Positions 32,401 through 35,400 of a stretch of 64,000 nt of DNA are shown in pieces. Source of the stretch: Escherichia coli O127:H6 str. E2348/69 (lineage in GTDB: Bacteria > Pseudomonadota > Gammaproteobacteria > Enterobacterales > Enterobacteriaceae); the NCBI RefSeq assembly GCF_000026545.1, contig NC_011603.1; one strand, given 5' to 3'. Each line of letters starts with the position of its first letter. Positions within the stretch are counted from its first letter, which is position 1. A program made the position numbers.

Positions 32401-35400
32401 CTTTATGTGTGGCTCGTTTTCTTGCCAGGGATGCCTGCTGACGTTCTGCAAGCGTCAGAGGATTACCTTTTCTGTATGCTCGCTTTGTACCTGATGAGGA
32501 AGTCACTGCATTTTCTGTCTGCGACATCTCGCCTCCTCAATTCTCAAACAGGGATCGTTTCGCAGAGGATACTACAGTTTTTTGAAATCAGCGACTTGAA
32601 AGTTGTGACGATGATCTGTGTTGGCGCACAAATCATGTCTGATTACGACCGTTTAATGTGATTTTGATAATGAAATGACTGAAAAGATGGAAATGCCTTA
32701 ACCTGTGTGCCGGCCCCGGGCGGGACCGGCTGTTTCTGGCATGTCGGGTGTCTGCCCCTGAAATACCTCACACTTCCGGAAAGCGGGGACTTCCGTCCCC
32801 GCCCGGCAGCTTACTTCCGTGCTTCGTAGGCCAGAGTTACCTGCACCACTGTATTTCCCCTGTGAATATTCAGCTCACATAACCGTTCCCTGAATATCAG
32901 TAAAAAACACAACACCGTGGCGCACACGGCGAGCACCCCGATAAGGGCATATTTCGTCATAAACTTTGACCTCTCTGCAAGGACTGTCTCTTATACACAA
33001 ATCCCCACCCGGGGATTTGTGATGTCTGTCAGTCTGCTTTAGGGGGACTCTTTCCATCCGGTAGTTTCCTTCCTCCCCGGCAGCGATTTTTTGAACTTTT
33101 TCCTCACCTGTTGATCTTCTCTTATATTTCATTTTCTTCGGGTCTGTTATGGTACTTTCTGATTGTTATTCATGGGCTAACGAGCAGTTTGGACATGCCC
33201 GTCTCGGTGATCCGCGTCGTACACGACGCCTTGTGTCACTGGCCTCTTCTCTCGCTCAGCATGCAGGTCTTTCTATTGTGAAATCATCCCAGTCCACTGC
33301 TCAGGTTGAAGGTGCGTACCGCCTGATACGTAACCCGTCTGTGTCCCCGCAAGCCATTGCCGAAGCCGGATTTACCGCCACTGTAAGGGCATGTGAGGCT
33401 CATCCGCTGCTCCTCGCGCTGGAAGACACCACCACCATTAACTTCAGTCACAGTACGGCATCTGATGACCTGGGGAATACCACCACTAACCCGAAGACGC
33501 GCGGGCTGCTGGCTCACTCTGTCCTGATGTACGCCCCCGACAGCGCCCTGCCAGTCGGTCTTATCGAACAGCAGCGCTGGAGTCGTGCCACGGACACCTA
33601 CGGTGTTAAGCACCAGCGAAAAGAACGTCCCTATGAAGAAAAAGAAAGTTACCGCTGGCAGCAGGCTTCGGAGCGCATGGCCGAACGGCTGGGGGAGATA
33701 CAGAAACGGGTAATCACTGTCTGTGACCGGGAAGCGGATATCTGGCATTACCTGCATTATAAAGTCAGCCACGGGCAGCGCTTCGTGGTGCGTGCAGCAC
33801 AGAATCGCCGGCTGGAAGAAGCACCCGGCAAGCTCTTCGAACTGCCGGAAGTCCTGGCAACCGCGGGAAGCCACACGCTGAATGTGATGCAAAAAGGCGG
33901 GCGGGCAGCCCGCCAGGCCCGGATGTTCATCAGTTACAGCGAAGTCAGCATAAAAAATCCCGACAACAGCGGCCAGGCGCTCCCGCTCACGTATGTCTGT
34001 TGCCGGGAGCAGGCAGAGGACGGCGCCTGCTGGCATCTGCTGACGTCAGAAAAAGTGGCGAGTGCCGCCGATGCGCGACGTATCGTCAGCCATTACGAGC
34101 GACGCTGGCTGATAGAGGAATACCACAAGGCGTGGAAAAGTGGTGGTACATGTGTGGAATCGCTGCGAATGCAGACCCGGGATAACCTCGAGCGCATGGT
34201 GGTTATCAAGGCGTTTATCGCGGTGCGGGTGCTGGGCCTGCGGCAGGGCGGTATCAGTGAAGAAACACAAAATGACAGCTGTGAGAAAATACTGACGCCG
34301 ACAGAGTGGAAACTGCTGTGGGTTAAGCTGGAAGGAAAACCGCTTCCGTCACAGATGCCGACACTGAAATGGGCCTGTCTGAAACTGGCGAAACTGGGGC
34401 GATGGCATGACAGCAAACGCACCGGTCGCCCCGGTTGGGTAGTCATGTGGGATGGCTGGTTCAGACTTCAGGATATGGTTGAGGGTTACCTGGTGATGAA
34501 GTCTCTTGATCAGGAGATCTGATCAAGAGACAGGTCATACAGAGGGCGCTTTTATTATTCTGCCAGGATCGCCCGCAGCTCATCCTTGATCCGGTTCTGT
34601 CTGCGCACCTTTTCCAAGCGCGCCTGCGCATACTGTTCTTCTTCCTGTGTGATATGTTCTGTCACATAGCCTTCTGTATCATAGCGGCAGGCACCGGCTT
34701 TCATGGCGCCAAGATAGCTTTCTGAACGGGTGATGGCCTTCAGTGCCCTGCGCAGTTTTTTATGAGAGAGCGGGATATTCCGCTGAGACACCTCATCCAG
34801 TAAAACTTCCCGGATACCACAGGCAAGAAGCCGGGGCGTGTTACCGTCAAACAATCCCGGCCACCAGGGTTTCAGAGTGTTCACCGCCTCATCCAGTGAG
34901 GGCAGCGTCAGATAAATGGACAGCGCCTGTCTGGCCTGTGCTTTCTTCGCCGCCAGCTCTGCTTCCCGGGCAGCCTTCTCCGCCAGTTTCTGCTTTTTCA
35001 CCTTCCATTTTGGTGGCGTGGTGACATTGATGATGGTTTTCCGGCTCCGGGTCGGTGTTTCCCCTTCCGTTTTCCGTTTCAGTGTCAGTACCGGTCGTTT
35101 CTGCTCTGTCATGATTGCCCTGACCTTTGTGAAAATATGTCCTCCAGGTCGTTGAAACTACTCACTATGATATTAAGCTGACCTCAACGACCTCTGACAT
35201 ATTAATACCGACAATTAAAGATGTTTTTTAAACCATTGCGTCTGTACTGCCGCCACACGTTCAAAAAACGCGCCTTCATAAATATCATAATGGCATGCGT
35301 CAGCTTCCTCGTATAATTCCTTAGTACCAGAAGCAACAGCATCATATAAGGCTCTTCCCTGTTCTGGTGGATTAACACTATCCTGGCCGGCAATAACAAC

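Follow-up and report, generated by a model that had tools for sequence, protein, structure and literature searches.

Adjacent deletions by IS10 and Tn5, and deletions by recombination between IS copies, are part of classical insertion sequence biology. IS50, the element of Tn5, is 1534 bp long, and IS231 and IS186, which are likewise IS4-family elements, use palindromic targets flanked by G/C. The target specificity of IS231 is mentioned in PMC2266710; the same paper gives a 5'-CT start as the end criterion for the IS50 subgroup of the IS4 family, and the (R)YREK motif is defined there and in PMC2566895. For ISEc13, a full-text literature search returned only surveys that name the element once each, and the name was not found in the IS4-family review or in the supplements searched.

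The window, meaning the whole 64-kb stretch of DNA that was analyzed, comes from the EAF virulence plasmid, of the pMAR2/pMAR7 type, in enteropathogenic E. coli (EPEC) E2348/69. Within it, the region 32984-34533 is 100% identical to copies on EPEC plasmid pMAR7 (NC_010862.1) and on the E2348/69 plasmid (NZ_CP059841.1). Identical copies on these two plasmids and on the E2348/69 chromosome carry the RefSeq label "IS4-like element ISEc13 family transposase" (protein WP_000244358.1), and on the basis of identity to these RefSeq/PGAP-named copies we identify the element as the already catalogued ISEc13. ISEc13 belongs to the IS50-type elements of the IS4 family and moves by cut-and-paste; it has a DDE/YREK transposase, 19-bp Tn5-like ends, and usually an 8-9-bp target duplication. 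The ends as drawn here are validated by more than 20 other ISEc13 copies that have identical termini and duplications of 8 or 9 bp. The parts of the element are as follows.

32984-34533, plus strand: complete ISEc13 (IS4 family, IS50-like), 1550 bp
32984-33002, plus strand: left terminal repeat, OE-like, CTGTCTCTTATACACAAAT, 17/19 to Tn5 OE (2 mismatches)
32996-33021, no strand assigned: perfect hairpin with an 11-bp stem, CACAAATCCCC-ACCC-GGGGATTTGTG, overlapping left-end positions 13-19
33149-34522, plus strand: transposase gene, 457 aa, intact (ORF, Tn5 Tnp alignment, Pfam/NCBIfam matches)
34515-34533, minus strand: right terminal repeat, equal to Tn5 IE, CTGTCTCTTGATCAGATCT (reverse complement), 19/19 with no mismatches

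A first reading of this DNA from the sequence alone had described an IS50-like element with Tn5-type outside and inside ends and a full-length transposase. The ends and the transposase fold bear this out, but the element is a distinct, named one: its protein shares ∼42% identity with Tn5 Tnp (184/436 aligned columns) and its DNA ∼52% with the Tn5 element, which rules out IS50 itself or an isoform of it. We took the IE reference from the end of an actual IS50 (L013) that lies nearest aph(3')-IIa; because that copy lacks an OE end, the OE sequence was taken from the literature (PMC2566895). Each terminal sequence occurs only once in the window at ≤3 mismatches, against a chance expectation of 0.01–0.02. 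Both ends begin with CTGTCTCTT, which includes the 5'-CT start, and in the right end, which extends over the tnp stop codon, two GATC (Dam) sites lie at IS positions 1533 and 1538. Compared with the engineered mosaic end, the left end also agrees at 17 of 19 positions. The hairpin over the left end has a calculated folding energy of -18.6 kcal/mol (40-nt context) and is retained in diverged 1549-bp and 1564-bp ISEc13 variants despite other loops and a G-T wobble.

The 457-aa ORF is the longest possible in its frame, and its alignment with Tn5 Tnp covers the full length (query 6-453 versus 9-469, E = 6e-84). The catalytic residues D93, D193, and E323 align with Tn5 D97, D188, and E326, while Y316, R319, E323, and K330, together with R215, align with Tn5 Y319, R322, E326, and K333, and R210; a DDE triad and a Y(2)R(3)E(6)K motif are both present in this single-ORF transposase. 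Profile scores exceed the cut-offs for PF01609 (30.9 bits, cut-off 23), NF033590 (514 bits, cut-off 160), and PF14706, the Tn5-type N-terminal DNA-binding domain (70 bits, cut-off 24). The C-terminal dimerization domain PF02281 scores 24.1 bits, slightly below its cut-off of 26.7, and the C-terminus aligns to Tn5 Tnp residue 469. By sequence inspection and alignment, the counterpart of the Tn5 inhibitor start (Met56) is Q52, with no in-frame ATG, GTG, or TTG nearby; an inhibitor could still be produced in some other way. A stringent sigma-70 consensus scan found neither a tnp promoter nor an outward promoter into srnB, a result that proves little either way.

The element lies between finO and the RepFIIA control genes, where the sequence-only reading had placed it, and its surroundings are as follows.

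32050-32141, plus strand: CopA RNA (Rfam)
32279-32527, minus strand: repA2/copB (ORFs; RefSeq annotation for the same sequence in pMAR7)
32811-32960, minus strand: Hok/SrnB-type toxin ORF, 49 aa, with Shine-Dalgarno sequence ("Hok/Gef family protein", WP_001300273.1)
32975-32983, no strand assigned: 9-mer on the left flank, CTGCAAGGA, the copy that remains of the target site in the srnB leader (backbone acctct-CTGCAAGGA-agaggc, fits the target motif given below)
34534-34542, no strand assigned: 9-mer on the right flank, GTCATACAG, the copy that remains of a second target site (backbone ccctct-GTCATACAG-agggcg, fits the motif)
34555-35112, minus strand: finO, intact (ORF; RefSeq annotation for the same sequence in pMAR7)

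A target duplication of about one helical turn, which is 9 bp in IS50, is not found around the copy at 32984-34533. Sibling ISEc13 copies have 8 or 9 bp, so the trait holds for ISEc13 and its absence here is secondary. The two flanking 9-mers do differ, as had been noted, and a search across the flanks for direct repeats of 1 to 12 bp returned none, identical 9-bp repeats included. In IS-free close relatives, exactly 2282 bp lie between the same two flanks (1034-3315 in relative L002), and this segment holds a thermonuclease gene and two small ORFs as well as the leader and antisense region of srnB. When the whole of pMAR7 was searched, the segment was absent and only a 37-bp chance match appeared. 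The copy thus has no target duplication because 2.3 kb of adjoining plasmid DNA has been lost, which agrees with the earlier proposal of an insertion followed by an adjacent deletion or recombination.

The srnB-side site is in the srnB mRNA leader, 14–23 bp upstream of the toxin start codon, and the right-flank site is inside a hairpin just 3' of finO, which in the uninterrupted backbone is the palindrome GCCCTCTGT-CAT-ACAGAGGGC; one arm of this hairpin is gone with the deletion. In LR890578.1, ISEc13 occupies the same srnB position with its 9-bp duplication CTGCAAGAA intact, and the leader continues beyond it. NZ_MW390526.1, which seemingly has 20 bp of the left flank in common, was set aside: it is another locus in a fimbrial-gene context, and the likeness is that of the target motif.

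The consequence for srnB is a truncated module. The full-length leader of the hok/sok type is matched by Rfam RF01794 in L002 (1000-1156, 99 bits); the window gives no match, with only 34 nt remaining and 123 of the 157 nt lying in the deleted segment, so the loss of the srnB leader suspected at first is real. Of this hok/sok-type (srnB/srnC) type I toxin-antitoxin system, the toxin ORF is present and the leader and antisense-RNA region are missing. As judged from sequence, the srnB/srnC post-segregational killing module is dead, with the promoter, leader, and antisense gene gone and a promoterless toxin ORF left behind.

The positions of the breakpoints are informative in light of where ISEc13 inserts. 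All 25 of 25 independent ISEc13 insertions fit the motif C(-4)Y(-3)C(-2)N, 8-9 bp of target, NG(+2)R(+3)G(+4), which has a background frequency of 0.0011 per position (∼0.1%). The 4.3-kb L002 has only four positions that match it, two of which are the breakpoints (1025 and 3316). The right-hand site fits with a 9-bp target, although the palindrome around it is shifted one base from where it lies at the best sites. Since both junctions lie exactly on motif sites, both appear to have been made by transposase strand transfer.

We therefore consider it very probable that the locus holds a full-length, probably competent ISEc13 whose flanks derive from two of its own target sites, 2282 bp apart, with the intervening DNA lost. 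The ancestral F-type backbone would have carried these two sites, one in the srnB leader and one in the hairpin downstream of finO, and transposase would have joined the element to each. The sequence of the steps, and the route by which the DNA was deleted, we infer from the end product. In one route, homologous recombination between two directly oriented copies, one per site, would remove the DNA between them; in the other, a single insertion would be followed by a transposition, intramolecular or within a plasmid dimer, that deletes adjacent DNA. We regard the first as about an even bet and the second as slightly less so. Either way, the deletion would have taken the thermonuclease gene and the two small ORFs and left the srnB toxin ORF without a promoter. 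Among PLSDB plasmids, a synthetic junction query found no ISEc13 at the finO-side site, so the two-insertion intermediate is unobserved.

That missing intermediate would also suit an explanation in which one insertion was followed by a deletion that did not involve transposase, through illegitimate recombination or nuclease damage beside the IS. Abortive events can leave an adjacent deletion beside one intact IS end, as for Tn5 and IS10. However, the distal breakpoint would then have to coincide by chance with one of the four motif positions in 4.3 kb, and the IS end is complete to its final base; we consider this sequence of events very unlikely. An exchange of flanks with another ISEc13 copy, by recombination through an inversion or cointegrate rather than by deletion, has precedent within ISEc13: IS-IS recombination has produced duplication-less copies elsewhere, with swapped flanks at L022/L023 (where an inversion of ∼60 kb is indicated) and hybrid flanks at L032. 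A possible partner is at hand as well, as pMAR7 has a second, identical copy in inverted orientation. That copy, however, retains its own matched 8-bp duplication GTTGCGTC, the order repA-srnB-(IS)-finO-traX-traI is collinear with relatives, and the missing 9-mer partners adjoin no other IS on the plasmid. Partners internal to the plasmid are refuted by these observations, and we give flank exchange as a whole very little credence. Just as improbable is an assembly artifact that merged two direct-repeat copies on either side of the 2.3-kb segment: repeats of 1.5 kb may collapse in short-read assemblies, but identical junctions occur in two separate records (NC_010862.1 and NZ_CP059841.1), and no part of pMAR7 retains the segment. 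A simple insertion whose duplication was overlooked through an error of one or a few bases in placing the ends, conceivable given the 8 versus 9 bp variation among copies, is already refuted by the absence of any flank repeat, by the clean duplications that the same termini bound in more than 20 other copies, and by the 2282 bp between the flanks in uninterrupted relatives.

The suggestion that this copy might still be active is plausible. The E2348/69 chromosome has 30 places that match ISEc13 (27–30 across O127:H6 chromosomes), and the same transposase protein is found at ten distinct insertion sites within one genome. Among E. coli genomes, 873 contain a nearly complete copy of the element. 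In E2348/69, the chromosomal gene ygfK is split by an identical copy flanked by the 9-bp duplication GCATGGTGG. Recent activity is likely given identical copies with clean 8-9-bp duplications, the 30 chromosomal places, and a pN/pS of ∼0.1 (0.08–0.10 among intact ISEc13 variants, indicating purifying selection). The copy at 32984-34533 is probably transposition-competent as well, judging from its identical siblings. Searching for further copies and for the missing 5' segment of srnB, as had been proposed, returned the inverted pMAR7 copy and the chromosomal places but, on the plasmid, no srnB segment.

An ISEc13 in a well-known, sequenced virulence plasmid is ordinary and already known, and a duplication missing through an adjacent deletion is textbook IS behavior, so that the finding by itself matters little. 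It does document that the E2348/69 EAF plasmid lost a thermonuclease gene and its srnB/srnC killer module through ISEc13 activity, and the abundance and probable continuing mobility of ISEc13 in this reference EPEC strain bear on the genome stability of laboratory stocks. More tentatively, and with somewhat less than even confidence, we suggest that ISEc13 follows a stringent, possibly undescribed target rule, C-Y-C-N, then 8 or 9 duplicated bp, then N-G-R-G, in which the conserved bases flank the duplication, often as the arms of a terminator-like hairpin, and the duplication length follows the half-site spacing. Such a rule would explain how E2348/69 can carry ∼30 copies with little gene damage, as they would land just past gene ends, and would make deletion endpoints predictable. 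With ends near the Tn5 IE and mosaic end, ISEc13 and Tn5-based tools might also cross-react in EPEC. A target rule this sharp could help annotate IS-mediated rearrangements and clarify target capture by Tn5-like transpososomes.

Compared with IS50, ISEc13 is of nearly the same size (1550 bp) and has the same kind of single-ORF DDE/(R)YREK transposase, aligning over its full length and including the Tn5-type N-terminal DNA-binding domain. The 19-bp ends starting 5'-CT are shared too, and the right end is the IE itself, down to the two Dam sites and the overlap with the stop codon. Unlike IS50, with its fixed 9-bp duplication and weak target consensus, ISEc13 makes duplications of 8 or 9 bp, shows strong flanking specificity (CYCN-N8-9-NGRG), and has a conserved hairpin over its left end. 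In its symmetric target, G/C-rich half-sites, and variable duplication length it resembles IS231 and IS186, but it belongs to another subgroup, its C-rich arm is 5' and its G-rich arm 3', and the conserved bases are outside the duplicated 8–9 bp. The deletion at srnB, finally, has the form of the adjacent and IS-IS deletions of IS10 and Tn5: one intact IS, with its original flank on one side, the flank of a nearby target on the other, and no matching duplication.

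The window carries an insertion sequence filled by a single open reading frame (ORF), with extent and ends as follows.

32984-34533, IS unit of 1550 bp, from a direct read of the window sequence
first 19 bp of the IS, left end, CTGTCTCTTATACACAAAT, read from the sequence
last 19 bp of the IS, right end, reverse complement of CTGTCTCTTGATCAGATCT, read from the sequence
33149-34522, plus strand, transposase ORF of 457 aa

The left end matches the Tn5 outside end (OE; CTGACTCTTATACACAAGT, PMC2566895) at 17/19 positions and the right end matches the inside end (IE) at 19/19, the IE sequence having been verified on a genuine IS50 (plasmid NZ_CP139178.1), in which it lies on the side of aph(3')-IIa. 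Both terminal 19-mers are single-copy in the 64-kb window with up to three mismatches permitted, at a chance expectation of 0.01–0.02. These data bear out the sequence-only reading of an IS50-like unit with Tn5-type ends at 32984-34533. That reading also had the flanking 9-mers as different and the target duplication as missing, and both points stand: the 9-mers are CTGCAAGGA on the left and GTCATACAG on the right, and realignment of the ends gave no direct repeat in common at any length between 1 and 12 bp. A hairpin with a perfect 11-bp stem (window 32996-33021) extends into the left terminal repeat, covering its positions 13-19, and is also kept in diverged 1549-bp and 1564-bp variants though the loop sequences differ; it might mask the IS end or stop translation from reading through.

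Stretches of pMAR7 (NC_010862.1), an EPEC EAF-type virulence plasmid, and of the E2348/69 plasmid NZ_CP059841.1 match all 1550 bp at 100% identity, and both records annotate the ORF as 'IS4-like element ISEc13 family transposase' (WP_000244358.1). Window 28984-38533 and pMAR7 33938-43487 are identical across 9550 bp. Window 5001-28984 is 4954 bp shorter than pMAR7 5001-33938; pMAR7 is pMAR2 marked with the ~5-kb transposon Tn801, and the window therefore probably derives from the native plasmid of E2348/69.

Many close backbone relatives lack the IS. In one of these, NZ_CP044190.1 (L002), the left flank (srnB side) runs up to locus position 1033 and the right one (finO side) starts from 3316, with exactly 2282 bp at the place of the IS in the window. 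The features of this region are listed below.

L002 1000-1156, 5' part of the srnB/hok mRNA region, Rfam RF01794 match at 99 bits
inside the 2282-bp L002 segment, 135-nt ORF
inside the 2282-bp L002 segment, thermonuclease-family gene
inside the 2282-bp L002 segment, 204-nt ORF

RF01794 is full in L002 and undetected by Rfam in the window, where 34 of its 157 nt are left, confirming the loss of the srnB leader that had been noticed earlier. Comparison with the whole of pMAR7 found no other place for the 2282-bp segment, the missing srnB 5' part included, and it was therefore deleted rather than moved. The relative thus supports the earlier proposal of an insertion followed by adjacent deletion or recombination, and a deletion next to the IS explains the missing duplication. 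The segment lost from the window also holds a match to Rfam AS-pc02 (RF02876, 'Antisense to pHK01_099'; 47.6 bits, L002 2413-2537). The right junction, taken as the IS right end plus finO side and scored at ≥80% of a 200-bp query, occurs in 1 of 5426 complete E. coli genomes, as the E2348/69 plasmid; the left junction is common in PLSDB to only pMAR7, the E2348/69 plasmid and LR890578.1.

The empty sites of 25 independent insertions were rebuilt, 17 of the window-type variant and 8 of the 1564-bp variant (L016-L035, L004-L010 and pMAR7 copy B, with the ancestral sites L002 1025 and 3316). All 25 fit C(-4), C/T(-3), C(-2), 8 or 9 duplicated bases, G(+2), G/A(+3), G(+4), or in short C-Y-C-N, 8 or 9 duplicated bp, N-G-R-G, with the length of the duplication (8 or 9 bp) differing from site to site. 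Among the 17 window-type sites, C(-4), G(+2) and G(+4) are present in 17/17 and C(-2) in 16/17. The arms are frequently complementary, often as terminator-like hairpins, and are at least 5/6 paired in 47% of these 17 sites versus 0.66% of background positions; several ISEc13 sites lie just beyond gene ends. The minimal motif has a background of 0.0011 per position (0.11%) in the rest of the window, and within the 4301 bp of L002 no more than four positions carry it: 1025, 2460, 3314 and 3316. The left breakpoint is the target starting at L002 1025 (acctct-CTGCAAGGA-agaggc; window 32975-32983) and the right breakpoint is the target starting at L002 3316 (ccctct-GTCATACAG-agggcg; window 34534-34542). 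As both breakpoints fall on motif sites, both junctions bear the signature of transposase-made joints. The sharp target rule with its variable duplication was not described in the eight passing mentions returned by a full-text search for ISEc13, which covered neither ISfinder nor the original genome publications; the name was likewise not found in the IS4-family review (PMC2266710) or the supplements covered. We make no claim of novelty for the rule, which is a modest side lead.

Two routes to the deletion fit the data. Two direct copies, one per site, may have recombined, and other loci show such exchange between ISEc13 copies directly. In CP148541.1, L022 and L023 (2304717-2307290 and 2365194-2367767) have exchanged flanks and no duplications, which indicates a ~60-kb chromosomal inversion. 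L032 takes its left flank from one known site and its right flank from another (compared with L029 and L009/L030), also without duplication; one of these sites is chromosomal and the other is known from an IncX1 plasmid, and either a cointegrate or a chimeric assembly may be behind this. Alternatively, one insertion may have been followed by intramolecular or plasmid-dimer transposition, a route by which IS10 and Tn5 are known to produce adjacent deletions. Neither route is proven, because a PLSDB search found no plasmid with ISEc13 at the finO-side site. A random, transposase-independent deletion is disfavoured by the motif at both junctions. Independent support for the left target site comes from LR890578.1, where an ISEc13 of 98% identity occupies the identical nucleotide position and shares the orientation of the window copy; its 9-bp duplication CTGCAAGAA is intact, and beyond its far side the srnB leader carries on. 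Its proximal flank diverges by 2–5%, similar to the IS itself (~2%); it may be the same ancestral insertion as in the window or a second hit at a hotspot.

The deletion also bears on the neighbouring genes, among them the surviving toxin ORF.

32811-32960, minus strand, 49-aa toxin ORF (srnB) with its Shine-Dalgarno sequence

The end of the IS lies 23 bp upstream of the toxin start codon. Since the promoter, leader and antisense region are gone, the srnB/srnC toxin-antitoxin module should be non-functional, and the toxin ORF is promoterless. A promoter scan found no consensus promoter directed outward from the IS. Several terminator-like hairpins lie on the minus strand within it, which would make it unlikely that transcription runs on from finO into srnB. 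finO is intact, while its downstream hairpin has one arm removed by the deletion.

Further copies were sought, and 100%-identical ISEc13 elements were found at two other places. One splits ygfK in the E2348/69 chromosome with a perfect 9-bp duplication, GCATGGTGG; the other, pMAR7 copy B (76514-78063; L011 7615-9164), lies outside the window in the leading region, is inverted relative to the window copy and carries an 8-bp duplication, GTTGCGTC. Recombination between the two pMAR7 copies could invert ~38 kb of the plasmid. There are 27–30 matching places per O127:H6 chromosome, and one other genome, CP148541.1, encodes the exact ISEc13 protein at ten separate sites. Intact variants with 2–4% DNA difference give pN/pS of 0.08–0.10, and 3/6 other copies compared (L004-L009) have broken ORFs of 243–297 aa. 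More than 1000 records of F-type and Shigella virulence plasmids hold ISEc13 end fragments only (IS positions 1-206, 1231-1550 or 1427-1550; 92–97% identity), which indicates old, decayed insertions that are widespread in these backbones. The window copy is a member of the intact, recently mobile class, and it is itself probably active in transposition.

The observation is correct but ordinary: ISEc13 is already named and annotated, the plasmid is a long-sequenced reference, and losing a duplication to a neighbouring deletion, or to recombination between IS copies, is normal for such elements. The IS50-like ends, intact transposase and adjacent deletion of the sequence-only reading all hold; the refinement is that the element is ISEc13, not IS50.

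The comparison with Tn5 makes this distinction clear. The alignment of the transposases runs end to end (residues 6-453 versus 9-469, E = 6e-84), with ~42% identity (184/436 aligned columns). D93, D193 and E323 are the counterparts of the Tn5 catalytic residues D97, D188 and E326, and the Tn5 (R)YREK residues R210, Y319, R322 and K333 are conserved (roles in PMC2566895). Pfam recognises a Tn5-type DNA-binding domain as well as a DDE domain, with the Tn5 dimerisation domain slightly below threshold, and the IS4-family transposase model NF033590 of NCBIfam reaches 514 bits (cut-off 160). Elements in the IS50-like part of the IS4 family share 5'-CT ends together with the complete YREK motif (PMC2266710), and ISEc13 is a separately named one of them. 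IS50 itself is rejected because the DNA body is only ~52% identical, though the final 19 bp are the same. Dam control is hinted at by a GATC at IS position 130, 36 bp ahead of the transposase ATG, and by a further two within the right end. Where the Tn5 inhibitor start (Met56) aligns, there is no in-frame ATG, GTG or TTG (window 33290-33330, codons ~48-60), so regulation by the Tnp/Inh protein pair, as in IS50, may be absent from ISEc13.
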